A stretch of DNA of 62,460 bases, filler included, from Dugesia japonica (lineage: Eukaryota): assembly GCA_001938525.1 (NCBI GenBank). It is 6 parts of 6 records of this genome, joined end to end, with 100 filler letters (N's around TTAATTAATTAA, not from the genome) between each part and the next. Parts side by side here need not be neighbours in the genome. Positions count along the whole stretch, not along the records: positions 1 to 9,507 come from MQRL01633682.1; positions 9,608 to 18,661 come from MQRL01646926.1; positions 18,762 to 27,097 come from MQRL01614531.1; positions 27,198 to 41,386 come from MQRL01621029.1; 2 more parts are not named here. One strand, written 5' to 3'. Made by a program: the position numbers and the translations under genes. Shown in pieces: positions 935-40,000 of this stretch (the stretch's first letter is position 1; each line of letters begins with the position of its first letter). A model generated the notes under the pieces. It searched no databases, was not told where the DNA came from, and saw only the letters and a list, made by a program, of their open reading frames with translations.

Positions 935-1050
935 AAGTCAATTCCTGACGAAGACAAAGTAAAAAATTCGAAATACGATCAAGAACTATAAAAAAAATAC
1001 ACGAAAAAAGTAAAACAATATTTTGCTCGAAGCTTTCAATTTAATGCTAA
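935..1050 (+). repeat. Copy of dispersed Penelope-type pseudo-LTR repeat with degenerate hammerhead core
   Basis: ttcCTGACGAagac...ttcGAAAtacgatcaagaact...tttgctcgaagcttt; related segments at 1-72, 6841-6940, 11041-11210, 16949-17096, 28231-28846, 39806-39893. Confidence 0.55.
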
Positions 1051-2549
1051 TTTATTACTATTGTAGAAAACATTGTTCTAAATAAATTATTCAAAATTTT
1101 GTTGTAATAATATATTTGATTTCAAGATTATTTCTGCGGAGTTCCATAGATTGAAGCATGAAAAGCTTTAAAAAAAGAAATTTAACAAAAATATTTTCTG
1201 GATTTTTTGAAATAATGAAGAGTGATAAAAATAATTAAAATTATTTTTAGTGAAAATTTCAGATCAAGTTAATCTTGTAAAGAATCTAAGATAAAGATTT
1301 CCAAAAGTTATTTCATAAAGTTACTCAAGATTTCAATTTTAGAATAAAATTAATAATTTTAGTTGACATTAAGCAGACACAAATTATTTAAAATTGTGAT
1401 AATGACTTAAATTCGTGTTTAACTACAAAAAATCAAATCAGATCAATCGTTTTATAAAATTAATTTTTAAAAAAATGTAAAAAATAGATTCATGATAATG
1501 ATTTGTTTAAATATTCATTTTAAATTCATTTTCAAATTATAGTAATGTAGTAATGAAAATTTATCGTAAAATATTAGTTATGTATGTAGAATAATTTAGG
1601 GTTTGGTAGGATTTCATTAAGATTTTAATTAATTTTCACTTTTCTCCTTTGTCATAACTTATGTTTCGATACAAAATTTTACAATCTGATACCATTTTCA
1701 CGGTACATAATTTGTCAGCTACCATCTTGGGTTGATGTTTAGTAAACAAGAAATTTTCATACAGTAAATATGCGCATAAAGTAAAAGTATACATGCATAT
1801 AATTTATTGAATTTTTATGAATACAGCTATTGATTCCCACGCAGAAAGTTTTCCTCAGAATTCAATATTATTTTTTTTTATTAAAGTCTACTACTAGAAG
1901 TATTTTTAGAAATGTCAGTTGCTTTTATCGCGACTATCATGTGTATATTATGCAGATTTTTTACTAGGTCATTTACTAAAATTATTAATGTTTACCAAAC
2001 TTTCTGATTAAAACTGATTAATTCATTAGTTGAGTTATTTTACAACAGAAATACTTGCCTGAGATGCCTCCATAAATTTATCAGTCCAATTTTTTCAAGC
2101 TGCGACATGTTTAAGTAAATGTATTTTTCCTCACTTTAAAGCAGTACCAAAAACATTTATTTATATTCTTTATGAAAAAGTTAGAAAAACATACAAATGA
2201 CAGAAAGCCTAAACAAATCTTATTATTCTTTATGTAAGATTTAAAATTAATGCTATGTATGGGCTTCGCGTTGTGAACAATTTTATTTTTTTAAAACAAG
2301 CATTTTTTCCCGACACACTATTTTCCCACCACTGATCTAAAGTTTATTACTTAAGACTATTGATAGTAACATATGAAACAATACTTTCAAACAAAACAGT
2401 TATTTAAATGGTACCACAAGATTCATTAAGCTTATTGAAAATTGAGCCTTCACTTAAGGTAGTGAAGTGACTACTCATATAAACCGTATTAGGATAATCC
2501 TCTTAAAATAAATGTTGTTAATGATTTCAATTCAAATATCATTGTAAAC

Positions 2550-2890
2550 CAGGGGTTCTTAACCGGTGAAGTATGCCGATTTTCCAGGAAGGTATGAGTT
2601 TAAACTGTATGTTGGGTTTTTAGGATTTAAATTTTTGAGAATTACTTTTTGCTCTCTCGTACAATCACTGTCAGTTTAATCAGCAAATTTCACAACTAGG
2701 GTCATACCTAAAAACGACAAGCATTTGTGTCACCTCCGTGATATGCCCCTTTTCTATGGGTTCAGCGTGACTTTGTGATATTGCGTCTTATAAGTTAATC
2801 ATGTGAACCGCAATAAAAACCTAGCTCAATATTTAACGATCAGTAAACATTGAAAAACCAAAATTATTAACAAAAGGATGAGTAATCACC
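2550..2890 (+). mobile_element. hAT (Charlie/Buster-like) left end, truncated
   Basis: Begins CAGGGGTTCTTAACC, a typical hAT-Charlie terminal motif; no partner TIR found; right boundary approximate. Confidence 0.4.
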
Positions 2891-3001
2891 AAAATGAATG
2901 GAAGTTTCACAAATGGTTTCAGTATTTATTGTTTATTTACAAGATTAACGACGTATCTGAGCACTGTGCAAAAGTTCCATCATCTTTTAGGCGTCTAAGC
3001 C

Positions 3002-3300
3002 CTAAACCTCTATGGAAGTCTCTTCTTTTGACGGCTGGTAATTCAACCACAATGTTCGAAGAGTTTTGAACATTCTGGCCTCTCTGTCTGCATATATCTT
3101 GATCACATTAGTCATTAACCGGTTGGCTTGCTGGAGGGCGAGCTCTTTCTCCTTTAGTTGATTATATTTGCTATCTGTCTTGGTGTTTCCTCCTTTTAAA
3201 TGCAAGACTTCATTTCGCATCACTCTCTTCTTCTCCTTCAACCTCTTTTGTAGAGTTATGATGTCCTTGATTGATTCTTGGCTCTCCTGTGATTTATTCA
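3002..3300 (-). CDS. small coiled-coil orphan ORF, probably element-borne
   Basis: ~99-codon K/E/L-rich frame (ITLQKRLKEKKR...LKEKELALQQANR); AG acceptor at 3301-3302; AATAAA downstream; TATA-like and ACGTCA motif upstream at ~3475-3490. Confidence 0.4.
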
Positions 3301-3541
3301 CTAAAATTAACAGATGAAATTACATTAACTAAAGAAAAAATCTTTTTTTTATAGTTCAAGAATTTATGATTATTGTACTCGTCATCAAAGAAAACAAATA
3401 ACACGTCTAAATAATAGTAAAACTAACTAACACTCAATTCTCACTGTCGTTGCCTATGTAATCCAAAGCCCAACTCTATTATAGTGACGTACATATCACA
3501 AAGTTTAAATCAAACACCACCTGTTTAAGCTATACATGACT

Positions 3542-3973
3542 TTATTCTAAATTTAAATAAATCGGCAGAATGAAGTTACTCCAACCCATTATTTCCCGTA
3601 ATATTTTTAGCTCCTCCTCTTTCTCCTGCTCTTCTTCCAGCTCCTCCTTTAAGGTCCAGGCGTTTTGAATTTGTAGAGAATTCAATGAACTCGTTTCATC
3701 CGGAATTTTCAACCCCTGCTCTGAGGCCTGGTTCATATAGTCACGTTGAGCTGTGACTATTTGGATGATACCTTCCTTGATTTCCTACTGTAATTTTATT
3801 TTCTTTAGTTCTGCCTTTAGCTCGAGTATTTCTACTTTATCTTTCTCCTTCTCTTTGGCGATTATGACTCATACCTCCTACCATTAGATAAAGTAATTTC
3901 CGCGCTCGTCAATGTGTGGCAAGTTATAGTCTTCTGGCTTCAACTTCACATATTCTCGATTCAAATAATTCAT
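3542..3973 (-). pseudogene. degraded small coiled-coil ORF
   Basis: MNYLNREYVKLKPEDYNLPHIDERGNYFI*...EILELKAELKKIKLQ*...LKEELEEEQEKEEELKILRE, with in-frame stops; acceptor-like CTAG directly before the ATG. Confidence 0.4.
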
Positions 3974-4387
3974 CTAGGATTAATTTTGATTAAGTTCGAG
4001 ATTTATTATTAAAACAACAACAAAATAAGACAACTATCAAAATGGAATTATGAATTTATATTTAAATTTATATTTATATTTTCCGTCTCTTTGGTCTATG
4101 GCCTATCATTTTTGGTTCCACCGCTCCTGGCTTACGGATCAGAGAAAATAACAGTCTGACACTACCATCTTTTCTCATGCCCAAGCTTCCGGGGCTCTCA
4201 AAAGACTTCCATGTCATTTTAGAATATTTATAAGCCTAACAGAAAATTATTAATATTACTCCAAAATTATTTACTCATCTCAGTAAATAAACCATCACAC
4301 AAAAGAAGAGATTCATAAAAGATTTTATTTCTAAATNATTGAAAATCAGCATTGCTTACACATTATAACATAAATAAAAAAACATTT

Positions 4388-4746
4388 TATTGAGCTATTT
4401 TATTATCACAGTAATCGAACTCCATGAAACACTCTTTCCACCTGCTCTCTTTCCTTACAGGGTCTTTCCATTCTCTTAGTACTTTATTTTCGAAATACAA
4501 TTTGTTTCCGCAGCACTTTATTTTTTACACCAATCCATTTGTAAAGCATTCGATTCTTGAAATACAATTTAGCTCTATCACATTTTTTGCACGTCTGCAA
4601 TCCATTTGCAAAGCATTTTCGATCTCAATACACAATTAATTTCAACACATTTTTCCACTGAAGCATTTCATTCTAAGGTACTTTCCGGTTATCTCAACCT
4701 CATAAAAATTTGAAATTTTTTTAAAAGTCTTTTTATTCAAAATCAT
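4388..4746 (-). pseudogene. small Cys/Trp repeat ORF, frameshifted
   Basis: MILNKKTFKKISNFYEVEITGKYLRMKC...KCDRAKLYFKNRMLYKWIGVKI-KCCGNKLYFENKVLREWKD...*, an internal ~22-aa repeat. Confidence 0.4.
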
Positions 4747-4789
4747 ACAATAAACAATAGAAATAAACAATAGAACAGTCATTCGCCAA

Positions 4790-5510
4790 TAGCAGTCGGC
4801 CAACGATTCTTCACCTCATCCAGAATAGCATCGAACGGATTCTCTTAGCCAATACTGCTTCTCCACATGAACTCGGCCAAGTAAGACTTCAGGAAGTGAC
4901 GATCTGTGCCTCTGTGCTTCTTAATCATCAGCTTTGCTGATCCCCACATCCTTTCTACGGTCTGAGTGTGTGCGCCTGTCTCGGCATCTACAAACTTTTA
5001 ATGATGGTTGACCTTAAAGTGTTTAAATACAGATCGCTCCAGTTCATGTGTCTTGTAGGCCTACCAACTCACTGAGTAAATGAGGGTCCCCTCAGCAAAG
5101 TTCTTCTTGATTGCAGTCAGCAGAGTAGATGCACTTCGATCCGGCCCTTCGATGAGAAAGCATTCCTTGGTTTGGGGCATATCCCTCCAAAGGTCCATTT
5201 TTGAGGTAGCACCCGACCGGCATTGTTCTTGCACTTGGTGAAAAATAAATTCCTTAAATTTCCACAATCATTCCATCCCCGCCAATTTTTCCTTGATACT
5301 TCGCCAGTAGAGTCTCCACGCATGCTTGCCTTAGATAGTTACTCCACTCTGTTGTTGTGTACTTGATGATCCCGAGCTCTATCTTGCACAGCTTCCCAGA
5401 TGTCATTTTCCAGGCTCAGATGTAGATGAAACGCGCGACAGTAACGAATGGAAGACGAGATTGAGCGAGCCAGTTGCCGTTGCGAATATTGATCTTCTGA
5501 TAGCAGGCCC
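4790..5510 (-). mobile_element. Merlin (IS1595/ISXO2-like DDE) transposase pseudogene
   Basis: Motifs IRNGNW..SRL..FIY, EWSNYLRQAC, KNNAGRVLPQKWTFGGI, DRSASTLL..IK..GTLIYS..W.AY, HFKVNH..FVD.ETGAHTQTVERMWG.AK, LKSYLAEFMWR; stops and frameshifts present. Confidence 0.9.
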
Positions 5511-6913
5511 TTTCTTAAAATTAAAGAAGAAGAGTATTTTATTTAATATTTAATATAATATATTTTATTTTACTTAAGACTTATTTTGTTTAATTTTAAA
5601 AATTAATTTATCAATATCTTAAGATTAAAAAAATTATAAAATCTTTGATGAGGTCGAGATAACCAGAAATAACCCATTCTAACAGCAATATTAATCGCCG
5701 AACACGATTTATTTTACCACCTCTTATCCTCGGATACATTTCCTTCTATCAGCAATTTCAATTCTCAGAACACAACCATCTGTTCTTTCGGGGAGCAAAC
5801 TGGGATCATAGAGTGGACATTTTAAATTAAGGTTAAATGAAATAAAATATAAAATGACTTTTGTTTAATTTATAGCTCTCCACTTGTCCGTAAAGTAATG
5901 ATGATTCATGACTAACCAAGATTGTCAAATTTTTAAACTCAATATAGATTCTAAATAATTGGAAAATTGTTTCTAAGTTGTGTCTCGTTTCTTGGTGTAT
6001 ATTATATTTATTTAGTTGATGCACAACAACATTGAAACTGCCCATTAGCCATCCAATCGAGAACACTGTTTCCTAAATTCGACTTTCTTATTGGATGTCG
6101 CCATGTGTGCATTTCTTTTTCCTCTCACCTGGCTAACAAATTCTACGCACATCAACTCGTACTTTTTGATGAACGATTTTATTTCAGCTGGTCACCTCAT
6201 GTNNNNNNNNNNNNNNNNNNNNNNNNNNNNNNNNNNNNNNNNNNNNNNNNNNNNNNNNNNNNNNNNNTTACTATTTTCGTGTTCAGCAGACAAAGTACTA
6301 GTGACTGGATCAAAATTAATTAAAATAATAATAATATTAAACGGAAGCTTCAGTCGTATTATTTTAGATTATTTTTTATAACAATTAACACCATTTTCAT
6401 CTCATATTTTGCTGTAATTATCTTTTCTTTCTAAATTAGGGTCTTCTAAGCCTGATTTTCATTTTTTTCATAATAATTATAATACTAATAATTATACAAT
6501 AAAAATGATCATAATAATTATAATAGTCGAATTTCTAGTCCAGTACTAATTTTTTGTGTCTATTTTTCACTGTTTTTAGGAAACTTTTTAAAAAATTTTA
6601 CAACTTTTTTACCCAATGATTTTGCGATCTACCCAAAAATATATAATTCTATAAAAAAAGTATTTTTGAAAAAATAAAAATTAAATATTTAAAAAATATA
6701 TTAAAAAATTCTATCTTATGTAATTATTATTTTGATTTTTCAAAGATTCTTCAACTAAATAATTTTTCTTTAAATTATTCTTATTTGATTTTTATATGTT
6801 CCTTGTTAGATGATGTAATAATATGAAAAGTAAAATAATATTCATTAAATATTAAATTAAAATAAAGAAAAAGCTTCGATCAAAGTAAAATGCATTTTTA
6901 TAAAAACTCAAAT

Positions 6914-6940
6914 TTTCGACACAATTGTCTTCTTCAGGAA
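6914..6940 (-). ncRNA. minimal hammerhead ribozyme core (Penelope-type), stems I/III degraded
   Basis: Minus strand ttcCTGAAGA-a-GAC-aattgt-GTC-GAAA: intact CUGANGA/GAAA boxes with paired stem II. Confidence 0.5.
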
Positions 6941-7789
6941 TATGATGACTTTTAGATTCAATTGGATGATAGATCTTTGTTACAAAATTCTTTTATTTAA
7001 TCAAAATTTTATTGGTTTATCTAAATTATACATTTTTTATTAAAATTAAATGCATCCATGTACATATTCACATATATTAACTACTTTTGGTTCCTCTTCA
7101 ATAATCAACTCAGAACCATATCAGAATAAATTTGATTAACTATCTATTTGATATAAACTATTTCCTTGAGTATTATCATTCAAATCTTGATCACTGTATA
7201 TACAATTTTATTTTTGTCATTTTATTCAATTTTTTAAAATTTATCTATTACAAAATATAAAATGGTTTACTAAATTCGATTTATTCATTTCATTGCGAGT
7301 TGAAATAAGGTTTCTAGTAATTATTTTGATATGGGATTTCGAAATATTAATTTTCGAAATTTATTTAAGATATGTCGAAATTTTAATTTACTGAGTTTGT
7401 TTAATTCTGAAATTTAATTATTTTTATTTTAGTAAATTTTTATTTAAACAGTTGTATGTAATCTTAAGTGAATTATTGTATAAATAGTGACTGATTTTAA
7501 GTCCAATTCATCCACTTTTAAATTGCAAAAAGGGCTAATACTTACTAGGTAGTCGGACAGCAATAAAAATAATAACGCTGGAATTTAATTTGTAATAATT
7601 GAGATATAATAATAAATATTTTAAAAATAAATCTTTACATTACTTTAATAGTTGACTATATAGTATACTTATAATAATATCAATTATATATTAACGATAT
7701 TAAGTAACATATAAGGTTCTTCATATAACATTAATATAAGAAACATATAATTGAATTGTATGAGACTTTAAAATCATTAAAAACTCATG

Positions 7790-8384: not shown

Positions 8385-8868
8385 TATAAGAATTTTATAT
8401 TCATTTTGAATTTTTATAATAAATATTGTCATGTATTCATTGTTTAAATTTAATCCACTTTATAATATTTTTTTAACTATATTTTTTTCGTTAAATATTT
8501 ATTCAAAGCTTGATTGGAGCAAGATGATAAGTTTTACTTGAATAAAATTCTTGATTATTATATAACGTAAACTACTTACTACTAATAATTTGCAATTAAA
8601 TTTAGTTATTGCTGATATAATATCAGAAATTCGTATGCAAACATAAAACATAAAAGAGAACATTCCAAAGTTTTTAATTAACTCTTTATTCTAATGATCA
8701 ATTTGTTTTACCATGTAAAAAGTATGCACTTGATATCATAAATGATTTTAAATTGTTAATTTTTGACTAATTTAAATAATTAGATAAATTATTTAATTTA
8801 GACGTTTATAATAAATTCAATTTAAAATTATGATAATTCTTGTAATAATTAATATATATAGTTCAGAA

Positions 8869-9437
8869 ATGTCGAAAAACGATTATAAATCAAAGAATAT
8901 AGATGATAATATTCCAACGAAATTGACTGAATCAAAAATTATTTCTAAGAAAGCTGAAGAGACTCGTGTTCAACAAAAATATAGTCGAGTAAAATCTCCT
9001 GAAGATGAAGGTATAGTATCAAAAGATTCGACCAATCCAACTGTTACAAGAACTTTTAAAACTTATGAGAGAAAAGTTATTCGTAGAATTGGACCAAATG
9101 GAGAGGTTTCAGAGGAAATTTTTGAAACTGGCGATAAGATTCCGGAAAATATGTTTACAACAAATTTATCTGATGAAGTTAATGAAGAAAAATCGAAACC
9201 AAAACTTTGTGGAAAATCAGAAATTCAGGCTTCTTATGGAATGCGCAGTACATTAGCTTCAGGTGAAGAAAATACAGAACAATTTACAACTGGACCAACT
9301 GAGGTTACCATTGTAAATGAAGGTTGGAATTTCCTAGAGCAACCAATATAATTTGAAATAAAATATTTCAGATAAACATTCTTTTCCGTTAGGAGCTACA
9401 GTTACAAAGAGATTTCATCAAGAAAAAATTAGAACAG
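8869..9437 (+). CDS. 5' part of spliced host gene, low-complexity E/K/S/T-rich protein, function unknown (exons 8869-9322, 9372-9437)
   Basis: Open frame MSKNDYKSK...RKVIRRIGPNGEVSEEIFET...VNE; 49-nt GT-AG intron 9323-9371 restores frame to DKHSFPLGATVTKRFHQEKIRT; donor GT at 9438; then microsatellite and linker. Confidence 0.75.
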
Positions 9438-9507: not shown

Positions 9508-9607
9508 NNNNNNNNNNNNNNNNNNNNNNNNNNNNNNNNNNNNNNNNNNNNTTAATTAATTAANNNNNNNNNNNNNNNNNNNNNNNNNNNNNNNNNNNNN
9601 NNNNNNN
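9508..9607. other. artificial scaffold linker
   Basis: 44 N + TTAATTAATTAA (stops in all six frames) + 44 N. Confidence 0.95.
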
Positions 9608-9619
9608 CAATACCACTTT

Positions 9620-10515
9620 TTATCTATAAAGTTTGATGATTTTAGGTGATGTTTTCCTTGATCAATGAAAAATTCTCTATCAAATTGTATCAATTTCGAC
9701 AAGTTTTGAGAAACATTTGATATTTTGAAAAAAAGTTACAAAATGCGGGAGGACAGCTGTAACTCTTCGTTAAAATGCATTTTTGCCGACACGATATTTT
9801 ACTTTTGTACAGTCACTTTTCCCTCCTGAGTTTAATGATACTTAATTTGAATCTATACCTGTTATGTACGCCAAGGAAATTGAGCGTTAAAATTCGAAAT
9901 TTGAAATTTTTGACCACAAAACCATATTTATTTCACAATTTTAGAATTATATATTTGGAATTAGTGGAAAATTCTCTATCTAATAAACATGATTATTTCA
10001 CGAAAAGATGAGAAATAAAATTTTCGAAAATTTTTTATTTGTGAAAAATAATCTTCATTGAATTCTGCATCGATTGATGTAAAAATTTTGACAAAAAAAA
10101 TTTTCAAAATTTGGGAGGCTTACCCGGATTGCATATAAAATTTCATTTAAAAATTTAAAAATCTGAAAATTTAAACAAAGATCAACTAAATTCACCAATT
10201 TATCATAAAATTTTTAAATATTTTCCAAAATCTTGAAAATTTAAACAAATTTGACTTTTTTCATAAATTTCCCTAAAATATCAACCCAAACTGACCATAT
10301 TCGAGGAAATAATTTAACCAAATCACTCTTAAAGTGACTAACCCAAAGAAAATCGCAATTGCCCAAAAATTACCAAATCTTACTAATCACGAGGAATACT
10401 TTGACCGAATCACACAAAGCTTACCCAAATTTTCTATTCCCGAGGAAATATTTTACCTAATTCCTCTGAATCAACTAAAAATCGACATAAAATACGAAAG
10501 ATTTTATCGCACTGT
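9620..10515. mobile_element. non-coding dispersed DNA-transposon-like repeat
   Basis: Shared blocks (aattctctatc; gacgatattttaactttgtacagtcactttt; tatgtacgc..aaattgagc..aaaattc; aattctgcatcgattgatgtaaaa) recur at 46500-47750 and 48960-49330. Confidence 0.7.
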
Positions 10516-10855: not shown

Positions 10856-11429
10856 ATCAATTTAAAATGTTTCACAAATAAATATAAATTTTACATATCT
10901 AGTTGGAACAACCAATAACTTATTCGTTGATTTCAATAATTAAATTTTAGAATTTGATAGAACTTTTTGAAATAAAAACAATTTTATTCAACTAGAAATA
11001 ATTAAAGAAAAATAAAATAAAATTTTAAATAATTTTACAATTACAATTATAGTGAGAATACTTGTTAGATTTAATAATTGAAGGCATTTGTAAAGTTTCA
11101 ATAAATTAAAGAGTTTCGATCAAAATGATATATTTTGCAAAAAGTTAATTCCCGAAGAAGACAATTGTTAAAACTTTGAATTACTTAGCAACAAAGAAAA
11201 ACAATATTTTAAATAATGTTGAAATTAAAAATTCAAATTTATTTTAGGTTTTTATAGTCTCTCTTTCCAATAACAAATGGTTCACTATAATCATTTTATA
11301 TATTAATTCATAAATCACGAAATAGTAAATTATTTACTTGCATTCTCTATGAATACGTATATGCAATTGTCATCTGAATCTATTCTCATTTCCATTTTTA
11401 TGTTTGTCTTATTGAATTTCAAAAGTCAA

Positions 11430-12764: not shown

Positions 12765-13400
12765 TTAATGAATGGCTCTGACCAACTCCTCTACTGATGG
12801 AGCCCTGCCTTTTGGGTATTCATTTCTCGGATCTACATCTTTTACTATGTTCCCAGAAAATATCTCTTCACTTTCATCATTGTTCTCCTCTCTAATTGCA
12901 TAGATTTTTTTGGTCCGACTCCAATCTTTCGTTTGTTGTCCGCTTTTAAAATTGTATCTTCTCTCTTCTAGTCGTGGTTTGTTTATGTTCAAATAACATT
13001 CTACCACTCTGTGACCTGGTCTTTTACATTTACCGAATATAATCTCAATGCACATCCTTCTGATGTCACCAATCTTACCACATCCAAAACATTTTGGTGG
13101 CTTCTTGTCTGGAAATTTTCTACTTAAATGCCTTTTCTTGTGGACAATCCAGCATTCCACTTGTGAATTTTTGGGGCACTCTGTTTTTGTGTGCCCATAA
13201 CTCTGGCATGTCCAACACTGTGGTTCTGTTATTTTCGTAACTCTCTTAATGTTTCGTCTCCTGTCTCTGGTACCTTCTTCACGAGTTACTCCCGCGTAAC
13301 TCTTCACAACGTTAATAAGTTCTTTTCTTTCTATTTTTCAACTAGTGAAAGTGTTCCTTTATATTTTCTACTTTCTCCAATTTCTGCATGATTAACTCTT
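12765..13400 (-). mobile_element. gag: Ty3/Gypsy gag C-terminal fragment with CCHC zinc knuckles
   Basis: CWTCQSYGHTKTEC, CFGCGKIGDIRRMC, GKCKRPGHRVVEC; C-terminal YPKGRAPSVEELVRAIH* resembles YPNDRVLLLNKLLKTIH* at ~37383-37435. Confidence 0.8.
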
Positions 13401-16589: not shown

Positions 16590-17000
16590 TCTATATCGAT
16601 TCAAAAATAGTAGTCTTGAATTTGAAAGTAGTCAACTTTGAAATTAAAGTTCATTTAATGAAATTTGTTTATTTTTAAAGGTCACCTAAATGTAACATTA
16701 TAATGTTAGCAGACAAATATAAATATTGAATATTAGCAAACAATGATTATAAATAATTTTATAATGAAATACTATACTATATACACTTTTATACATTTAT
16801 GATAAATCTTTAATAATACAATTATGATAATAATACTTTACTGATTTTATTTTAATTTTCCGATCATATAATTTCATTTTACAATATTAATACCAATAAT
16901 AATAATTTTAATTTAATAATAATAATCATTCTTTATTCTATTTTATAATTACAATTATTGTGAGAATAATTGTTGGACTTAACCATTGATCGCATTTGAG

Positions 17001-17096
17001 ATTTCATTAAAATAAGAAAAAGCTTCGATCAAAATAAAATTTATTTTACAAAATAAATTTTATTTTGATCGAAGCTTTTTCTTATTTTAATGAAAT
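17001..17096. repeat. perfect 47-bp inverted repeat with 2-nt loop
   Basis: 17001-17047 is the exact reverse complement of 17050-17096. Confidence 0.95.
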
Positions 17097-18661
17097 TCTT
17101 TATTCTATTTTATTTTTGTTTTAATTTTTTTTATAATACCATTTCATTTTAATAATTACAAATTTTCACTAACAATCGTTTCTTTAAATAGATATCTTAC
17201 ATTTATTTTATTCTATAATAATTTAATTATAATTCTACTTTTATATCAGTTATATAGTTATACATNAAATATATAGATTTTGTTCCCTCCGTTCTATTTT
17301 CAAGAATTTTTTTTCCATGATCTATTTAAAAGGATTTATAACTTCATACCAATGTAAAATTATTACCACACAAAATTAATTCAATATTTTCCATAGAAAC
17401 TAACTGTGAAAATTGAAATGTTAGAGAAATAATTACCAAATGAATGAGTGTATGGCAGTTAAGTAGGTTTGAAAAGATATGAAAGGTACAAATACTAGTG
17501 TAAATAATTTAAATATTAAATAAAAGTATGAATATTTTTACANNNNNNNNNNNNNNNNNNNNNNNNNNNNNNNNNNNNNNNNNNNNNNNNNNNNNNNNNN
17601 NNNNNNNNNNNNNNNNNNNNNNNNNNNNNNNNNNNNNNNNNNNNNNAAAACGATAGCAAAAAATAAATAACTCTATTTAAAATAAAACTGTACTGTTAAA
17701 TATTTCGATCAATATCTAATCCGTAGAAATATATAGCAATAAAGTTCTATTTTAAATGATGTTATTTATTTTATATCACGCATTATTTTTATTTTTATTC
17801 GGACTTGACAGAGCAATTCTGTAAATCCGGTATTACAAAACTTTTTCTGGGAAAAATAAATTCCTAAACATTTTCCTTGTATACGTGGTATGTCATTCAT
17901 AAAATCGATAATAAACAACTATATGAAAATTTCTATAAAATTCAAACAAAAATCAAAGATTTTAATCGATATATTCAGTAAAAAAAATTAAAAACTAATT
18001 AAAATATATTTTTATTTTTATCTAAGTAAAAACAAAACAAAAAGATATTTAGTTNNATATAACAAAAAGTAAATATTTAAGAGGGATAAAAACAAGTGGT
18101 AGGTTGAAAACTAGGACAATAGAGCAAAACAGCTGTCAGAAAACATTTGATTGAAGTGTTGATTGACCGTCAAGCATCGCTTATATCGATATTTTTGAGT
18201 GACTTTTGTAATTGATGCTTTATTGATTGCAATTCCTTTACCACTTGAAAGTAACATACATGCATTATCACAATCCATTCACAAGAGAATGGGTTTATTG
18301 TGTGTTTGTGTGTGTACATTGGGTTATATGCATATGAGTAGTCTTGAGAGACGATTAAACATGATTTTCGCGGCCTCTTATTTGATCGAATGTAGATAAA
18401 ATCGAAGAATAATGATGTTTTTTCTATCAAGACGACGGTAAAATAATAAACATTAAACCTTAATAAAAACAATCATCACAGTCAGAATTAAGACATAAAA
18501 AATAAAAAGTAGTTAAATAAATTTTTTTATCAATTTAATGACTTTCTGGGTTTATTTTTGATGTTGACAATGTTTGTCATTTATGTAAATAATATAGGAA
18601 TTTACATTTGTCGGAAAAATAAAATAAAATAATCAAAATCCAAGTTAATACAATGTTTTTT

Positions 18662-24719: not shown

Positions 24720-25614
24720 ATCATTGTAGACCAGAAAAGACTATAAACAAGCAATAATTGACCATCTCTATGAAATTTCTTACTAAAATTTACCATCCAT
24801 AAATAATTCTCAATCAAAAGGGACTTTTATTATTAGTGAACAAAATTAGTATTACCGAGGAAATTCCTTACCAAAACTAATCAGAACTGCCAAAATTGAC
24901 GAAAGCCCAAAATACTATAAAACATTCCATCAGAAATAGACCAAAACTAACTTTTCCGAGTAAATGTTCAACCAAAATCAATAGTACGAAAATATCTTGC
25001 ACTACTTCAATCGTCTAGTATTTCCTCTACATTGGGCATCAAAAATGCCCGTTTTTACTATCAAAACTCGATTTCATAACAAAATCTTTGGTCAAACAAA
25101 AGCTATAAACATAAATTTTCTTTANNNNNNNNNNNNNNNNNNNNNNNNNNNNNNNNNNNNNNNNNNNNNNNNNNATCATTGTAGACCAGAAAAGACTATA
25201 AACAAGCAATAATTGACCATCTCTATGAAATTTCTTACTAAAATTTACTATCCATAAATAATTCTTAATCAAAAGGGACCATGTATAGAAAATCATCAAT
25301 GTAAATGGAAACTTTTATTATAAGTGAACAAAATTAGTATTACCGAGGAAATTCCTTACCAAAACTAATCAGAACTGCCAAAATTGACGAAAGCCCAAAA
25401 TACTATAAAACATTCCATCAGAAATAGACCAAAACTAACTTTTCCGAGTAAATGTTCAACCAAAATCAATAGTACGAAAATATCTTGCACTACTTCAATC
25501 GTCTAGTATTTCCTCTACATTGGGCATCAAAAATGCCCGTTTTTACTATCAAAACTCGATTTCATAACAAAATCTTTGGTCAAACAAAAGCTATAAACAT
25601 AAATTTTCTTTATT
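24720..25614. repeat. near-identical direct duplication across an N gap
   Basis: 24720-25124 repeats at 25175-25614 with a few SNPs and a ~30-bp indel; likely uncollapsed haplotypes. Confidence 0.85.
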
Positions 25615-27937: not shown

Positions 27938-28230
27938 AAATAAAAGTTTTAAAAAATTGCGTTTTTTTATTTTATTTAGATCAAAGCAATTTGTTCAATA
28001 TTTTTTTGAAGATAATTTATATATATATAGATGCTTACTTTTTGCTTTATTATTTCTTTCATTTCTTTCAATCTGTCTTTGATATTCCTTTCTTCTTTCT
28101 CAACACTTTTTCCAATTATTTTTTTGATTAGTTTTTATCTTCTTTAAATTTTTCACCCCACCACTATGTATGTCTTCCGTTGATTTTAGTACCGTTTTTC
28201 ATTTCATCTAAAATACTATATTAATTTCAA

Positions 28231-28846
28231 AATTACAATTATTATGAGAACATTTGTTGCATTTAACCATTGATCGTATTTGAAATTTTTTTAAATTTAA
28301 GGCTTCAATCAAAATGTAGTTTTTTTTTCATATTTTTTTAGTTGTTTTTAGTATTTCGAATTTTTTTACTTTTGTTTTTAACGGGAAATAACGTTTTTCT
28401 CTAAACTTTTCTTCTTTTAATTGTAAAAAAGTTAATTCCTGAAGAAGATAAAAGTTGAAACTTCGAAATACTACCAACAATTTAAAAATGTTTTAACAAA
28501 AAACAACATTTTTCATCAAAAGCTTTTAATTTAATAAAATCGTTAACACTAAAATTTAAACAAAAATATTAAACAACTGAATATTTAGATTAAAACTTTT
28601 GGAAAGGCATATAAAGAAAAGAAGCAAAAAGATGTTTAATTGGACGTTTTTAAATTACAAATAAGCCACAGTTTTACAATTACAATTATTGTAAGAATAA
28701 TTGTTGGACTTAACTATTGATCGTGTTGGAGATTTCATTAAATTATTTTCATTGGTTCTTGATAGTAGCTCTTGAAATACTATCAAGAACTAAAAAATGA
28801 ATGTAAAAAAGAAAAACAATATTTTGATCGATGCTTTTAATTTGAT
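28231..28846. repeat. compound Penelope-type pseudo-LTR repeat with direct and inverted subcopies
   Basis: ttacaattattgtgagaat..cattgatcg unit at ~28233 and ~28680; inverted subcopy 28330-28392; ttcCTGAAGAaga..aagt-tgaa-actt-cGAAA at ~28437; hairpin gttcttgatagta/tactatcaagaac ~28756-28790. Confidence 0.6.
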
Positions 28847-31234: not shown

Positions 31235-31425
31235 TATTGGCAAAAATGGTAATCGAACAAAACATCCACTAGTGCAAAACTAGGACAATACGACTCTGGA
31301 GTTGAATATTTTTAAAATTTTTATGACAGGGTTGAAATATTTATAAAATATTCAACTCCGGGAACTTTTTATCTTAGTTTTGCACTCATAGACTTTTTGT
31401 CCGCGGACTATTTATCCTACACCCG
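31235..31425. mobile_element. MITE with long imperfect inverted repeats
   Basis: agtgcaaaactaggacaa..ggagttgaatatttt pairs with aaaatattcaactcc..tcttagttttgcact; related aaaactaggacaata motif at ~18107. Confidence 0.65.
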
Positions 31426-31619: not shown

Positions 31620-31787
31620 GTAATTTTACCATTTATCAATTATCATATTTTACACAACAAGCATCAATACAATCCGGAATTTAAATTTCGCTATTTTTGA
31701 CAGTATTTAAATTCACTGTACTTTTTTTATCATTTTAACGCCGATTTATATTTTATATTTGATAAATAAATTGAAGCTAAATATTTA

Positions 31788-32140: not shown

Positions 32141-33326
32141 TATTATGAAGACAGTATATGATTCAAAAACAGAGCTCTAAAATAAGGACGCGAGATCCAA
32201 AATATTTACTTGTGCAATATAAGTACTAATGCACAAAATAATTGAAACTTTAACACAAATATACATTGAAAGTCTTTTCATTATTNTGAGTATGTTTTGA
32301 AAAGCGAGTTGAAATTTTTGTGCTTTGATTGGAAACTGTTTCTTTAAAAAGTTTTTTAAAAAATTAAAAATCACAAATTAATTAAGAAGTTAAAAAAATT
32401 ATTTTGAATGGAAGTTTTATCTAAAATTTTGCAATTGTTCTNNNNNNNNNNNNNNNNNNNNNNNNNNNNNNNNNNNNNNNNNNNNNNNNNNGAAATTATT
32501 TTTTTAAAACGATCTTCAAATTAGTTTTGAATGAAATCTGAAATTTTTAATCTATTAAAAAATAGTTTTCAATTAGAGCAGGAAGTTTTAATTTGTTTGA
32601 ATAAACAAATAATTATGATATAGATTTTAAAGGAAATAAATTTTACTATGGAGTTGAACTTTGATGTTGATGATCCGATGAGTACTCAAAANTCATCTAA
32701 CAATTATTAAACCTGTAAAAGTTAGAAGAAAAAAATGTCAAGAAAGAGTGAGAATGAGTAAAATTTTTACACTTTGCTTCAAGCGTCGAAAAAAGTACGT
32801 AATTAGGCTTGATTTGAAACATTTCAATTTGCTTAGAACAAATTTTGGTAACTAAACAAATAGCATTTTTNNNNNNNNNNNNNNNNNNNNNNNNNNNNNN
32901 NNNNNNNNNNNNNNNNNNNNNNNNNNNNNNNNNNNNNNNNNNNNNNNNNNNNNNNNNNNNNNNNNNNNNNNNNNNNNNNNNNNNNNATTTTCACTATTTA
33001 TATTTAAGGCTAAAACGTTTTTCTCAAATAAAGAACTCGGATTTGGTGACAGAAGCGCTAAACAAGCACTTGAAATTATAAAAAGCAACATATTTTGGAA
33101 TAAAATCAATGCAGACCCTTTGAAAAATTGGTTAAATCAATATTTCAAAACCAATCAAACGAAAAAAAATTAAAATGTTACAAAACTTTAGAAATTATGA
33201 TATTTCTTATATTTCTACTGGCTTTGATTTGTTTAAATTGCTCTTTATTTAAGGTATTCTTTTATTGGAGAATATTTACAGAAATCTTATACACAATAAG
33301 TTATTTTTATTATAATAATAATAATA

Positions 33327-33374
<48 letters not shown>

Positions 33375-35639
33375 NNNNNNNNNNNNNNNNNNNNNNNNNN
33401 NNNNNNNNNNNNNNNNNNNNNNNNNNNNNNNNNNNNNNNNNNNNNNNNNNNNNNNNNNNNNNNNNNNNNNNNNNNNNNNNNNNNNNNNNNNNNNNNNNNN
33501 NNNNNNNNNNNNNNNNNNNNNNNNNNNNNNNNNNNNNNNNNTTGAAATTTGTATTTGACTTTTATTTGCAACGATTTATTCTTGATTTATGAAAGTATTA
33601 ATGATGAATGAAAATTATAATTTGTTTAGTTTGTTTTATTGAATTTGGTTTTTGTTGATTGGATATAATTATGTATGTAATATGAAACAGATTGTAGAAA
33701 ACTGTTNNNNNNNNNNNNNNNNNNNNNNNNNNNNNNNNNNNNNNNNNNNNNNNNNNNNNNNNAGACTTCAAGTTTATTATTTTATTTATTATTGATTTCA
33801 GTGAAACCAGAGATTAAATATTTTCATTGAAATTTATTTTGATAAACAAATCATCAAAAAAAATTAATTTAAAAATTATTATTTAATATAGAATACTCGA
33901 ATGCTCGAGTACCCTACATTTTGTCAAGTATTTAATAGCTCCTGACTTCTTAAAAAAATTTTCATTAGAAAGGTCTACTAAATTTAAAAACTATTTTCTT
34001 GTCGAATTTAAATTTCTTACACGTGACTACACTAATGAACTTATTTCCGATGCTTTAATATTTGAAACAATTAAATAAAGTTTAAATATTCATTTTCATT
34101 TTACTTCTCGTGCGTAATGCGCACGTAATCAATGTTTTTTTTCATCTAAATTAAACAATTGGCAATTATTTAATATTTCATTTAGTTATTTATTATTCAT
34201 TTTATCATACTGAGTAAAAGAGAATCCGAAAATTGGAATTATTTTCAGAAATCCAAAGAAAATTAGACTAAGTGCAATGATATTCGAACAGTTTTAAATT
34301 TTAAAGGAAACAGAAGTTTAGAATTAATTAATCCTTTCGAAATTTCATAATTTGCATTTTATAAAATAAGAACCTGAAATATCTATAAATATTTATAAAT
34401 TTTTTCTTGGATTATTAGGTTTTCAGATTANNNNNNNNNNNNNNNNNNNNNNNNNNNNNNNNNNNNNNNNNNNNNNNNNNNNNNNNNNNNNNNNNNNNNN
34501 NNNNNNNNNNNNNNNNNNNNNNNNNNNNNNNNNNNNNNNNNATGAATCTGAATTTAATTTTATTATTATAGCTTATATTAAAAAACCAAAATTTTTTCTT
34601 TTAAGTTTTTAATTTTTACATAAAAGAACGAAATTGGATATTATTATTAAATAAAAAAAATAAAAATTCATGCCTTTGATTTCCTGAAGGGGGAAAAGAG
34701 AAAATAAACTTTATGTTTTGCTTGCAGAAAAAATCAACCAAATAGGAGTAAAATTTCATAGTTTTAGTTGTAACTTTAAAAATTATAATTGAGCCACAAA
34801 AACTTGGCAAAGAGCCACACTTTGTCCATGGCTGATAAATAGAAAAACATTAACATCTAAAATAATGAAAGAATTTTATTCATTTTCTATTAAAGGCTTT
34901 TTGAATTATCTGAAATTTTAGCAATATGTGCACTCAAACAAGAATACATGACAATTCGTAATTTTATCATGCAAAAACATCGATTTTCGTAGAAAAGTAT
35001 AGAAATTATACGGAATTAATACAACTATTGAATTTGAAAATATAAACTTAATATTACTGTTGTTGAGTAAAGAGATATTTTAGTGACCTCATTTAATTGT
35101 TCCAATTGGAAAATATATAGTGATGAAAAACACTAATATTGTTAGTAGAGAGCTTTCAAGATATTCTTATGTAAAATTAGAAATAGATATTGTCTAATTG
35201 ACAAAATATAATGCCAATTTAAATAACAAATAAATGTGAAATAATACCACAATTATGCAATTCACATCACTGTCCTAAAAATTCTATACTATTCTATTCT
35301 ATATGATGTAGATGAGGATGAGGCTTAATATGAGGAAAATTATTTGGATGACAACAATAATATCGTTGAAGAAGAAGAACTGCCTGATGATGGAAATGTA
35401 TTTGAAAAAAATCGTAATTCTTTCCTCGTATTAAATTGGTATTAATTGGAGAAATTAATTAAGTTCAGTTATTACTGACATTTTATTGAAGCATGCACAA
35501 CAAAAGAAGAACATTTTAAGACTAATATTAGATTTGTAAATTTTTAAAATCTATTGACAACTGCATTAAATAGAAATTTTAANATAATTTATTGTATAAA
35601 TAATGCATAAGAAAAGAGTTTTCCAACTTGTGTGGCTTG

Positions 35640-36215
35640 ACTTCAATAGAGAGTGGGGCTTTTTCAAGGGGTGCGCGAAGCTTTTTAAAAACATTTTCAC
35701 TATTGTACCAGAATTAATTATTATGAATCGAATATTTAACATTTTAATAATAAATTTGTTTTATTTAAATATGTTATTATAAATCCCCACTAGCTAATAA
35801 TTTAATAAATAGATTTCACAATAACTGCTTTTGTGTGTTTTAATGGTATATGACATTGTGAGTTATAAAAGTAACATCCCTTTTAAATGGAACGAAAAAC
35901 ATTTATTTGAAGTAGAAGAAACTGATTTAAATAATAGGGATATTGATATTGTAAATAAAACTATACCAAATGAGATTTCTTAATCTAGAAAATATTATCC
36001 GCAATATTTATCACTCAGATTTGCATGGTAACTTATAAATTAGGAACAACGGCCAATAGGTTTATTGTGTACGAAAGTTTTAGCTTAGGGTGATATGAAA
36101 CCTGGTAAACTAAGACGATATCTTGGAACAATACATACAGTGTATAAAAAAGAATAAAAACGAATGATTCAATTTTAAAATATTTACAATTTTTTAAAAA
36201 ATGTTTTTGAAAAAA
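35640..36215 (+). mobile_element. Buster/ZBED5-like hAT 5' fragment
   Basis: RKYYPQYLSLRFAW...EQRPIGLLCTKVLA*GDMKPGKLRRYLGTIH, a degenerate BED finger. Confidence 0.65.
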
Positions 36216-36347
36216 NNNNNNNNNNNNNNNNNNNNNNNNNNNNNNNNNNNNNNNNNNNNNAATATTAACCAATAAAATTGATTAAAATAATTTTTATTTG
36301 GAATATTTCATTTTTTGAAATTATCTTCGAATCTTATTCATAAGAAA

Positions 36348-39300
36348 ATGTCTGTAATGAATAGTTGTGATAAGGAAAATAAATTGTCTTTGGATTATTT
36401 TCCTAATATGGTGGCATCGGTAAATACTGATACCATTACAAAAACTTTATTATCGATGATGTTTTATAAAGGTGATGACATCAAATAATTCTTAAAGCGT
36501 TGTGAATTATATTTTGATGCAAAATGCCTTACCTAAAAGAAACAACGGGAAAAATTAATACCTTGCTTGTTAGACAATGATTATCTGGAAGAATATGCAA
36601 AGACAGTAAAAAAGGTGAACGGATTTCAGGCTCGTTTACTGTTGACATGCAAACAATAAAAGATGTCATCAATGTTTGCAAAATTTGATTAATCACAAAT
36701 GTAGTAAAGAAGAGATTAATCTCTTTCTAAAAAATGTAGACGATTTAGTTAAAAAGAAAGAGTATATAGAGGAAAAAATTTAGTATTTTGTGCAGATGAT
36801 AAAACATTGAAATAGGAAGGACTTTGTGAAACAAGATAATATAGAAACGATTAAAGAAATATTAAAGTTAGTAGATAAATAGAAAAAGAAAAGATTGAGT
36901 AAATGAGGTTAGNAGTTACGTTAGAATTGCAATTTTTGATTATCGCTGACCCGTAAAAAATATTGTGAGTAGGCAAGTAAATCAAAGGAATGAAAACCGT
37001 AAGTTCGAATGTTGAGTATGTAATATGGTTTGTCATACTAAAGAAAATTATCCAACTAAATAAATGATAGAATAGTGAACTTATCACAAGAAGGATATTT
37101 AAGTCGAGTTTGTCAAGAGAAGAAGCCAATAAAATGTTTTGGTTTTGGAAAAGTGGNNNNNNNNNNNNNNNNNNNNNNNNNNNNNNNNNNNAAGAGATGA
37201 ATAAATGGTGAAAATAGAGCAGATGAATGCTATACAAATTTGAATATGAAAAGAAAAACAGAGAAATGAGTGATTGCTAAAGGTCATTAAAACTTTATAA
37301 TCGAATATATGCGATTGAAGATGAAAAAATAAATAAAAACTATGTATATGAAGAATAAAATGAAAATAATTTCAGAATACAGTATCCAAATGACAGAGTT
37401 TTGCTTCTAAATAAGTTGCTAAAAACAATCCATTGACACCTAAATTGATTTATTGTTCTAAAGGGTTTGGAAAGTCGAAGAGAAAGTGTATATATTTTTA
37501 AATGAGATAAATTTTATGGATCACAGAAAAACAGAGAGCATTAGGATGATAAAAGAGAAGCAGAAAACAAATATGTTTATTACAAATTCGAAAAGAGACA
37601 ACGTATCATGGTATCAATTCAAGAGAATAAGTTCAAGTGTCAATTATATACTGGGGCGCCAATTAATGTTATTAAATAACGTTAGTTTATTAAATTAAGA
37701 AAAGGGCACGTGTAAATTAGCGATAAAAGACTGAGGTGTGATAATGATAGTATTCTCAAATGTTTGTTAAAGTAAGAACAGAAGTGGCGATTGGGATGTT
37801 TGAAAAGTTGCAAATTTCTTAGTAGAAAAAGTGACACCAGGACTGAAGGTAGTATGGATTTGCTAAAGACATTTGGATACAACTTATACAAAGTAAAGAT
37901 AATATCACTGGGGAACATATTGGAATCTTCATTTGTAATATTGAAACAAAATTTACAAAACAAATCAAAAATAAGTGAATGGTTTTCAATGGACATAAAT
38001 AATCTTAAGATTAAAAATGATNAATGGTTAATGCAAATATTTTGGAATAAAGAAGATATTTTATGGTAAACAAATTTGATGCAGGACGCACATATTTAGC
38101 AAAACACAAAATAGTTACAATTGGTGAACCGATCAATGTAAACCCATATTGGTAATAAATGAACTAAGAAACTAAATTTGAAAAAACTATTCAAAATCTA
38201 TGTGGAAATATTATTATTCAGAAATGCAACTCTCCATAGAATACTTTATTGATTTGTTCTTTAAGAAACGAAAAACCGACATCAAAATATGCCTAGACTT
38301 TAGACAGTTGAATACACTAAAAAACAAGTCCCTCAGATGCCTTACATAGATGAAATGATGGACAAGTTAGATGGATCTCAATATTTTAGCTCAATTGAAT
38401 TGAAAAATACATACTATTAGATAGAACTTAAAAATCATGTGTTTTCAACAAAGCATAGACAATACTGTTTTATTAAAATGCCATTTGGACTTGGGTCAAC
38501 ATTATGTACATTCAGAAGATGGTGACAAAAATTGCAAACGGTATTAAAGAATCATTGGTATATTTAGATGACATACTGATATTTTGAACAATACAAATCA
38601 ACGCTATAAAGATAATGTCAGGGTAATAACAGGAATAATGAAGGCTAGTTTAAAAATTAACCTCGGAAAGTTTCATTTTATTCAAAGCGAAATCAAACTT
38701 CTTGGGAATATGATTAATGATCATGATGTTTGATGAAATAAAAGCGATAAGAGCGTTTGGCAAAACTAACTGTCTCGAGAAGTTACGAGGTTTCTTAGGA
38801 ATTTGTAATTATTAATACTTAGAAAGTTTACGGAAAAATACGCAAAAAAAGCAAAAATCTTAGAACAGTTGTTTAATGAACCAAGTAAAAAGAACTTAGA
38901 GTAAATAAGCAATACCTTCAAATCCTTGAAGAAAATCTTTATGACTGCACCCAAATTGTGTTTTNCAAACATAAATAGAGTGTTTAATTTAAATACATGC
39001 GTCAGTTTTGGTACAATTGGAACAGTTTTGCCACGAGAAAAAGAGAAGGAAAAGAAATGGTTTTTGAATATGGCTTACATTCAGTAATGTGTCATAAAAA
39101 AGGATACTGCATTACATGAAAAGAGTTATTAGCTGTTTAATATTTCTGCATGCATTTTAAACATTAATTCTACAGTAGAAGATGTTTTCTTAAAACATAC
39201 CATAAAGCTCTTACCTTNATGATAGAGACAAAGAAATCGATCACGTCACAATGCCAGATATGGACTAATTATCTTAGTAGATTAGGCATGGTATTACAAT

Positions 39301-40000
39301 ATAAAAAAGAAATTCATCAGGGTAGCGCAGATATGTTATCTAGAACAAGATGTGAAATTCATATAATATGTCAAATGTCCCACAAATAGGCCAAGAAAGA
39401 AAAGATTAAGATAAGAGTACTAAACACGAATGAAAAGAAAAAAGAGAAATAATTAAACATTTCTGAAGAAAAGGATTCAATAAAGAAAATAAAAATTCCG
39501 AATGACTAAATATGAGAAACACTAGATAAAATACAAAAATTATTATGTCATTTAGGAGTTTAAAAATGTGTACAAATATAAATGATACATACGTTGCGAA
39601 GAATGTGTGGAGCAAAATACGGAAGTTTGTTAGCAAGTGTGAAATTGTTTAGAAGACCAAGATAGCAACAGCAGGACTAAGTAGAAGACGAAGAAATTAG
39701 TAGCTGCGAATTTGTTTTAAGTCGTATTTATAGATATATGTAGGCTAAAGGCAGAAACAATTGGTCGGATAATATGCGTTTTTTGTATGATAGTTTTTTG
39801 TGATGTTCCCGAAGAAGACTATTGTCAAAATTTTGAATTTCTATACAAATAAATTTTATTTTGATTGAAGNTTTTTCTTTATTTTAATGAAATGATAGAT
39901 CAGTTCAGTAATTACGTTGTACTTATAGCATTACAGAAACAAGATGAGGAAACAATAAGAAAATCATTTATTAAGAAGTGAATATTGAAATTTGTATTAT
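36348..40000 (+). mobile_element. highly degraded Ty3/Gypsy gag-pol
   Basis: gag-like GDDIK*FLKRCELYF; protease-like FKCQLYTGAPINVI (~37630); RT ICLDFRQLN, MPFGL, VYLDDILI (~38560); FLGICNY; RNase H-like GYCIT.KELLAV; integrase IDQFSNYVVL (~39895). Confidence 0.85.

Follow-up and report, generated by a model that had tools for sequence, protein, structure and literature searches.

End pieces of a Penelope-like retrotransposon as the probable source of an abundant hammerhead-bearing repeat in Dugesia japonica

Results

One repeat unit at eight insertions

We analysed a 62,460-nt stretch of the Dugesia japonica genome (GCA_001938525.1; hereafter, the window), composed of short, AT-rich scaffolds (18-35% GC) in which decayed remains of transposons, Gypsy and mariner among them, abound. 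An earlier note on this DNA had described a dispersed repeat with a hammerhead-like core at seven loci, in both orientations and on several scaffolds. Self-blastn of the window bore this out: the seven loci are mutually homologous (E 1e-6 to 6e-22; 73-94% identity; both orientations) and spread over four of the seven joined scaffolds by our count, with N linkers including those at 9508, 18662, 27098, 41387 and 52494. As 28231-28846 holds two insertions (28225-28545 and 28672-28846), there are eight insertions at seven places. Most likely, the family is made up of truncated ends of a retrotransposon of known type and is not a new non-coding element.

The three modules that had been listed for the repeat do recur, but not as separate entities. 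They form one unit of ~160 nt that reads in one direction: a minimal type I hammerhead, a U-rich linker of ~60 nt terminating in AATGAAAT, and a one-sided extension, or tail, of 60 nt. For a genome-wide view, contigs of two DNA runs (X1, X4) and raw RNA reads of three runs from the same species (X21-X23) were used; the loose ends of 200 RNA reads (X22) and 222 RNA reads (X23) behind position 17046 run from the linker into the hammerhead.

Half of the eight insertions are head-to-head pairs (11033-11212, 16941-17096, 28225-28545 and 28672-28846), three are solo (932-1050, 6856-7030 and 39794-39893), and the one at 1-72 is cut by the scaffold start. The youngest locus is the pair at 16941-17096, whose arms are complementary at 47 of 47 positions. 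Within pairs, the tail is confined to the inverted left-hand arm; its partner stops at or before AATGAAAT in three of the four, and the end of the fourth partner falls in a gap. The hammerhead is present on six family arms only and intact in one, the copy at 6937. Self-blastn of the window revealed no head-to-tail tandem among the eight insertions, and go-back joints were found in single contigs only. As the earlier note had stated, no reverse transcriptase (RT) open reading frame (ORF) adjoins any family copy in the window.

The tail encodes the start of a Penelope-like protein

The open frame in the tail extension had been noticed before its protein counterpart turned up. P0001 was retrieved solely by way of an unrelated part of the window: a protein search with the GIY-YIG remnant at 59168-59389 returned four proteins from five candidates, the best of which, P0001 (843 aa), was 80% identical to the query and carries RVT_1 and GIY-YIG domains, the latter with a Pfam match just below the cut-off. 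P0001 starts with MRSMAKSNNYSRNNCSCK, and translation of 16995-16942 gives MRSMVKSNNYSHNNCNYK, identical at 14 of 18 residues. All four tails encode P0001 residues 1-18, with 9-14 of 18 identical. Scores of these 18 residues on the tails (76, 75, 61 and 48) were the top four of 124,808 six-frame positions, the next being 29, while 300 shuffles reached at most 45 and 38 other 18-mers of P0001 at most 39. As the tails are the four best positions for the P0001 start, the extension corresponds to the ‘tail’ of a Penelope-like element (PLE). Its ATG lies ~65 nt past the predicted ribozyme cut, just beyond the tail-less end. Judged from these alignments, the tail is not non-coding, contrary to how the family had been labelled, and encodes the start of an RT and GIY-YIG Penelope-like protein, in agreement with the Penelope origin that had been proposed.

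Table 1 Features of the repeat family and of related sequences in the window.
Position	Strand	Feature	Remarks
1..72	+	Arm cut by scaffold start	Last 6 nt of hammerhead, post-cut linker, to tail-less terminus
932..1050	+	Solo arm, second subfamily	Decayed hammerhead: C3 at 945, C11.1 and G12 lost, C17
~13 nt before core	+	Start of the 932 copy	Adjoins mariner helix-turn-helix (HTH) remnant
6856..7030	-	Solo arm, only intact minimal hammerhead	C3 at 6937; predicted cut between 6910 and 6909
within 6856..7030	-	Upstream part of this arm	At least 90 nt of repeated sequence before core; 5′ end not fixed within window
11033..11151	-	Inverted arm with tail	Codons 1-18 at 11087-11034
11033..11151		Inner end of this arm	Can be read as starting at predicted cut; overlaps helix I of next arm
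11140..11212	+	Forward arm, no tail	Decayed hammerhead, C3 at 11152; U4C, G12A
16928..16946	.	Left target-site duplication	19 nt; 13 without bases shared with element ends
16941..17049	-	Inverted arm	Tail of 60 nt (16941-17000; codons 1-18 at 16995-16942) and linker
17044..17096	+	Forward arm, linker only	Starts 6-7 nt past predicted cut; reaches tail-less terminus
17095..17113	.	Right target-site duplication	Partner of 16928..16946
28225..28395	-	Inverted arm: tail, linker, decayed hammerhead	Codons at 28279-28226; C3 at 28384
28427..28545	+	Forward arm, no tail	CUGAAGA/GAAA intact, 15.2-16.2 pair broken; C3 at 28439
28672..28771	-	Inverted arm with tail	Codons 28726-28673; internal linker deletion; inner end is the predicted first post-cut base, 28771
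28772..28846	+	Forward arm	Begins 2 nt ahead of post-cut base 28774; right end lost in N gap
39794..39893	+	Solo arm in decayed Gypsy-like integrase	Decayed hammerhead, C3 at 39809; U4C, G12A
39787-39793 / 39892-39898		Candidate 7-nt duplication of the 39794 copy	
59126..59487	+	Frameshifted GIY-YIG PLE remnant	73% identical to P0001 723-810
59545..59697	-	Related pseudo-long terminal repeat (pLTR), probable sister family	Same-style hammerhead 59695-59671, C3 lost

A minimal hammerhead motif

The core that the earlier note had singled out, CUGAAGA-A-GAC/GUC-GAAA, is present at 6914-6937 on the minus strand. With its surroundings (6937-6910), the copy comprises a helix I strand UUC, CUGAAGA, an extra A, GAC-loop-GUC, GAAA, AU, UU and GA, and is the sole exact match of a minimal-hammerhead descriptor in the window, as opposed to none in 60 first-order Markov resamplings. 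It possesses an A-U pair at 15.2-16.2, which is palindromic and lacks a helix III loop, and a helix I of 4 bp. Helix II of the family has 3 bp and, together with its loop, often forms a perfect 10-nt palindrome. Stems I and II thus pair, as expected of the ribozyme-type motif that had been claimed; over seven window copies (the six family arms and the one at 59695), 87% of cells were paired, compared to 3-44% with slid partners.

In the sequencing reads, the majorities are CUGAAGA and GAAA-AUUU. None of the 40 variant positions listed, out of 89, fell in the core or stem II; variation concerned loop II (6926 T>A, 54%, and 2-nt indels) and helix I at 2.4 (6941 T>C, 48%) and 1.4 (6906 A>G, 21%), these figures being marginal frequencies rather than linked counts. 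Positions 3-5 are CCG in three of the six family copies. We considered and rejected an ancestral CCG from which CUG arose by CpG decay, the read majority being CUGAAGA. By its sequence, the 6937 motif matches the published consensus of minimal hammerhead ribozymes in metazoan PLEs in every listed feature (PMC4209133). U17 and the short helix II were dismissed as novelties, since both appear in the supplement of that paper. Self-cleavage of family RNA is a prediction from the motif: cutting would be weak, would involve a dimer or assistance by protein, and would take place after UUU in the first subfamily or UUC in the second. Most genomic copies carry dead hammerheads. The exact three-motif pattern had no match in metagenome contigs.

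Hammerheads in related elements

Alignment of 15 of 34 retrieved proteins led to 78 metagenome loci, the best 78 of 259 confirmed. Within these, the descriptor matched 27 times on the ORF strand, in 23 loci, and never on the other strand. Six more loci (L002, at 1466-1735, L005, L007, L020, L042 and L070) contained a U3-A8 covariant core that the standard descriptor misses, again always on the ORF strand. In L001 and L003, the motif has a 3-bp helix II and lies ~40 nt after the endonuclease stop, and a hammerhead-bearing pLTR was seen 3′ of a GIY-YIG ORF on the same DNA in L001, L002, L003 and L007. The L002 protein is 43% identical; its DNA combines the U3-A8 core with GAAA-AUUU and terminates in an inverted copy.

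With regard to clade placement, the P0001 group shares DKT, a short Cys linker ahead of GIY-YIG, a retained CCHH and YIDD, and the CxxC and both His are present in P0001 and its relatives. Comparison by eye with the rows of Fig. S2 in PMC8557442 suggests the group to be Nematis-like by these sequence motifs, the short Cys linker ahead of GIY-YIG and CCHH being common to both. The Hydra clade, which has DKT and CxCX5C in common with the group (PMC8557442), was rejected as a placement: Hydra differs in having lost CCHH, which P0001 and its relatives keep, and its RT cores that were seen read YRDD.

At 59126-59697, the GIY-YIG remnant (plus strand) meets the related pLTR with its hammerhead (minus strand) tail to tail, and the endonuclease copy has no pLTR of its own. 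The likeness of 59545-59697 to the family is marginal, its score being reached by 36-69 of 500 shuffles. The arrangement is more likely to represent two tail-to-tail insertions than an antisense hammerhead; a clade with hammerheads antisense to the ORF, as 59671-59695 could suggest, was rejected given the 27 sense and zero antisense matches in the 78 loci. By eye, an RT-thumb-like piece appears to be inverted at ~58900-59100, which tblastn with P0001 did not report. An 84-nt inverted repeat (59697-59780 / 59862-59945; 94%) consists of a mariner DDE fragment (Pfam Transposase_1, E 1.4e-6) and its inverted duplicate. The latter abuts the hammerhead at 59695 and is possibly target DNA copied during insertion. 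A CTGATGA at 59750 sits in the inverted DDE fragment and was rejected as a hammerhead because it lacks a helix II.

Abundance and transcripts

Summed contig depth peaked on the tail at 4.4 million, against 0.5-1.8 million for the linker, 0.13 million for the core, 7,000-39,000 further upstream and ~5-14 in unique flanks, a measure that is no copy number, short overlapping contigs overcounting by an estimated factor of up to ~30. We estimate the genome to hold 10^4-10^5 tail ends, the count falling off away from the tail, and the high copy number that had been supposed is thereby supported. Subfamily divergence adds to the depth gradient from tail to core.

Family RNA was recovered in both orientations from the oligo-dT runs: 579 X22 reads matched in one mapping, and 1,967 (X22) and 1,637 (X23) in the other, out of ~13 million reads each; X21 yielded 13. 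Of the matching X22 and X23 reads, 98% continue into unlike sequence, as expected of copies embedded in host transcripts.

Ends, target sites and inner junctions

The tail-side end is sharp: in 900 X1 contigs, similarity to the unit ends at 16939-16941 (agreement 0.45) and AT-rich sequence follows that is unrelated between copies. The pair at this locus is flanked by a 19-nt duplication, a length reached by one of 5,000 random window pairs; six of its bases are shared with the element ends, leaving a duplication of 13-19 nt. One contig each in X1 and X4 joins the two flanks with 37 letters, as compared to 208 in the window and 40 expected for an empty site. This contig differs from the window by 8-10% and hence stems from another haplotype or a paralogue. 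Retro-type insertion, as the earlier note had postulated, is supported. At the 39794 copy, the integrase-like frames end and resume on the candidate 7-nt duplication (Pfam rve, E 0.19 on the right side, nothing on the left).

The inner ends of the arms form two clusters. Five of the six hammerhead-bearing arms (932, 11140, 28395, 28427 and 39794) start ~12-25 nt before C3 of the core. Arms of three events begin at -2 to +7 relative to the predicted post-cut base: 28771/28772, which is exact, 17044/17049, and 11151, which is ambiguous. The junction of inverted pairs accordingly lies at or near the predicted cut in two to three of four pairs. In the pair at 28771-28774, the two arms start at the predicted post-cut base and lie 2 nt apart; at 17044-17049 both start 6-7 nt past the cut. 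One arm, that of the 6937 copy, runs at least 90 nt further upstream, and 52 contigs and 56 reads have a common continuation at 6957-6958, upstream of its core.

Other features of the window

Directly upstream of the 932 copy lies a mariner HTH remnant (829-930; Pfam HTH_48, E 0.004), preceded by short tandem repeats (735-790). Decayed Gypsy-like pol pieces (RVT_1, RT_RNaseH) occupy 38800-40000 and 42220-44156, with two RT fragments in opposite orientations at 42.2-43.8 kb, and a gag-like zinc knuckle is found at 12768-13337. Another dispersed family, at 9618-10480 and 45439-49107, contains long tandem subrepeats internally. The 79-nt inverted repeat at 31244-31413 (73%; 12-nt loop) falls outside the hammerhead family by blastn and could represent a further foldback element. 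At 24720-25610, direct repeats that are nearly identical (300 nt at 100%) flank a gap of 50 N, probably an assembly overlap artefact. Finally, a 178-aa open frame without Pfam match (8815-9351) is probably a host exon and likely the part covered by RNA-like runs, and 57132-57880 resembles, by eye, a hAT-like zinc-finger/transposase remnant.

Discussion

Origin of the family

Very probably, the repeat is the pLTR and tail of an endonuclease-bearing (EN+) PLE, and its dispersed copies are short pieces that this element itself produces by target-primed reverse transcription. Our observations of the unit's anatomy, its coding tail, the sharp tail-side end, the restriction of the tail to one arm of a pair, and one duplication with its empty allele make up the case. 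Since the protein whose first 18 residues the tail encodes is that of an autonomous PLE, the copies can be accounted for as ends of this very element, and a separate non-autonomous master is not needed.

Such a master, namely a dedicated element akin to a short interspersed nuclear element or a retrozyme, derived from a PLE leader, transcribed into a short RNA with its own fixed start before the hammerhead and mobilised in trans by PLE protein, is the form in which the earlier note had imagined the family. Its non-autonomous status is unproven, and we hold this alternative to be quite improbable. PLE-derived non-autonomous elements are known (PMC8557442; bioRxiv 10.64898/2026.07.22.740005), the window contains eight stubs and no ORF-bearing copy, depth falls from 128,000 on the core to 7,000-39,000 upstream, and the start ~12-25 nt before the core, common to five of six hammerhead-bearing arms, would suit a fixed RNA start. 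A cluster of starts is, however, also to be expected if priming occurs on the leader of a full-length RNA, and the unit contains nothing beyond a pLTR and the start of the ORF. The 6937 copy, moreover, extends upstream into sequence that is also repeated, with its shared continuation in contigs and reads; head-to-tail tandems number zero of eight; and nearly all family RNA in X22 and X23 runs on into unlike sequence.

To read the loci as miniature inverted-repeat transposable elements (MITEs) or foldback DNA transposons, whose long inverted repeats chance to hold a hammerhead-like word, would account for four hairpin-like loci, one with perfectly complementary arms, in a window where mariner and hAT-like remnants are common. 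We see next to no chance of this. The arms are asymmetric, with the 60-nt tail on one arm and a tail-less partner in three of four pairs, the fourth being cut by a gap; inner junctions differ from locus to locus, and three copies are solo. The earlier note had named two findings that would refute its own reading, unpaired stems and, as marks of an ordinary MITE, terminal inverted repeats with a TA or 8-bp target-site duplication; instead, the stems pair, the duplication measures 13-19 nt, and a PLE N-terminus is encoded at the outer end. A MITE is excluded by the unequal arms, the variation of the junctions and this duplication, and the reading is largely refuted.

A PLE origin could also be correct with the hammerhead being a mere relic or chance word, for example CUG generated from CCG by CpG decay, without selected structure. 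CCG in three of six copies, a single intact copy out of six, the missing Rfam match and the fact that cleavage is only predicted speak for this possibility, which we nonetheless regard as very improbable: the reads favour CUGAAGA by majority with a core free of listed variants, and 23 of 78 relatives have the same motif on their ORF strand, with a U3-A8 covariant core in six more, all on that strand.

Several findings weigh against our preferred explanation, the clipped ends of an EN+ PLE. P0001 is known as a protein only, without its DNA, and is thus a close relative of the parent, neither a proven master nor shown to come from this genome; the family pLTR and a full ORF were not seen on one molecule. 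Among the 24 loose ends of the tail that were displayed (709 more exist), none continued into the ORF or shared any continuation, and the tail, at 60 nt, exceeds the 30-40 nt in print. The DNA likeness to the L002 pLTR is marginal (in the best cases 19 and 20 of 500 shuffles) and not above chance for four of six family arms, so that the relatives support the layout rather than direct homology. With respect to the ribozyme, helix covariation is weak across the seven decayed copies (36 of 500 shuffles reach three doubly changed pairs), an Rfam search of the window with E up to 10 returned no hammerhead, and the minimum-free-energy fold of the intact copy's monomer differs from a hammerhead, as would be expected if the motif needs a dimer, as is thought. 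No pile-up of RNA starts or ends at the cut was listed, in oligo-dT/cDNA libraries that cannot show circles or cut ends. Lastly, a clear duplication is present at one of seven loci tested and absent from five, all older or truncated; the 7-nt duplication of the 39794 copy is weak when taken alone, with a 9% probability by chance.

A possible route to stubs and inverted pairs

By analogy with PAc of Anolis (PMC11167929), the RT/GIY-YIG protein would nick both strands of AT-rich DNA, and cDNA would start at two internal sites of the RNA, one after codon 18, at the tail end, and the other 60 nt upstream, just before the ATG. Two such starts would account for a pair of sharp ends separated by 60 nt and for the presence of the tail on a single arm; one cDNA per strand would give rise to an inverted pair, and staggered nicks to a variable duplication. 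Copies would be short if synthesis stops early. The stops ~12-25 nt before the core likely mark the RNA 5′ end, reached as run-off when cDNA synthesis is primed on the repeat copy in the leader, and those around the predicted cut may reflect either run-off at a ribozyme-cut RNA end or template switching within helix I; the inner ends are too few in number to decide.

It is tempting to view the stubs as a fossil record of in-vivo hammerhead cleavage, with inner junctions at the predicted cut. We deem this unlikely on present numbers: the events are three, picked post hoc, one of them ambiguous, and the helix I strands favour template switching without a cut. Should the junctions of thousands of copies pile up at the cut, this would imply that a minimal hammerhead cleaving after UUU cuts the template RNA in the animal. 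It would also resolve a matter that work in vitro had not settled, cleavage having proved dispensable there and RNA ends not having been seen. A second pile-up, 12-25 nt before the core, would map the RNA start. The value of the family hence lies in its material: an estimated 10^4-10^5 tail ends, insertion polymorphism and a recognisable parent protein; the distribution of the family's inner junctions could test both in-vivo cutting by PLE hammerheads and the origin of stubs by priming on the RNA leader. It also carries a warning for annotation: hairpins of this kind will be misannotated as MITEs or as precursors of miRNAs; the Rfam model mir-2363 scores 47 bits on one family hairpin, below its cut-off of 90.

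Comparison with known systems

The published literature searched gave no account of this family or of junctions at the cut site; Repbase and Dfam lay outside that search, and the family may be catalogued there. Minimal hammerheads of metazoan PLE pLTRs combine CUGANGA and an extra base, G10.1-C11.1, GAAA, a palindromic 15.2-16.2 without a helix III loop, NUH, a short helix I of 3-5 bp and a paired helix II, and occur mostly singly or as opposite-strand pairs in large decayed families (Cervera and De la Pena 2014, PMC4209133); dimeric PLE hammerheads are the subject of Lunse et al. 2017, as cited in PMC6765202. The core features of this consensus are found in the 6937 copy and the read majority and are broken in five of six family copies. 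In Fig. S3 of the same source, U17 is common, the A-U-U-U that follows GAAA in the family is shared by Crassostrea, and a 3-bp helix II is found in C. briggsae. With its own 3 bp, the family is at the short extreme. Its sequence differs from those published, and the sole planarian example in the table there has a 5-bp helix II and A17.

The insertion unit of EN+ PLEs, comprising a pLTR, an adjacent inverted, 5′-truncated pLTR, a one-sided tail and a target-site duplication (Adineta Pen2a, PMC3846280; PMC8557442), resembles the family in its head-to-head arms, overlap at the junction, extension of the tail into the first ORF codons, solo pLTRs and, clearly at one locus, a duplication of the variable kind; in Pen2a, the tail likewise lengthens the pLTR's share of the ORF start (PMC3846280). 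Family units, in contrast, measure 100-320 nt with no ORF between the arms, and copy number is far higher than in the units described in these sources. The tail is longer than in Pen2a (31 nt) and in general (30-40 nt), and the duplication (13-19 nt) exceeds the 8-10 nt of Adineta (PMC3846280, PMC8557442). Judged by sequence, the family agrees in most tests with an EN+ PLE insertion unit that bears a minimal hammerhead.

Poseidon PAc of Anolis (PMC11167929) parallels the family in a hammerhead 60-120 nt upstream of two sharp ends, a tail between these ends and AT-rich targets; RNA ends at the cut were not seen in either case. The PAc ORF starts inside the hammerhead, unlike the family ATG, ~65 nt after the cut, and the family is known from sequence only. 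Non-LTR retrozymes are likewise short, PLE-derived and devoid of a full ORF, with a type I hammerhead (bioRxiv 10.64898/2026.07.22.740005; PMC7229834), but are defined by head-to-tail tandems with one hammerhead per unit (bioRxiv 10.64898/2026.07.22.740005); with no such tandem among eight insertions, a tandem retrozyme was rejected for the family. The earlier note had put the repeat forward as its best candidate for an undescribed system, which is not supported. The motif of the family fits the consensus in PMC4209133 and its layout is the standard PLE insertion unit of PMC3846280 and PMC8557442; as a system the family is ordinary, since PLE ends with minimal hammerheads, inverted pairs and tails have already been described.

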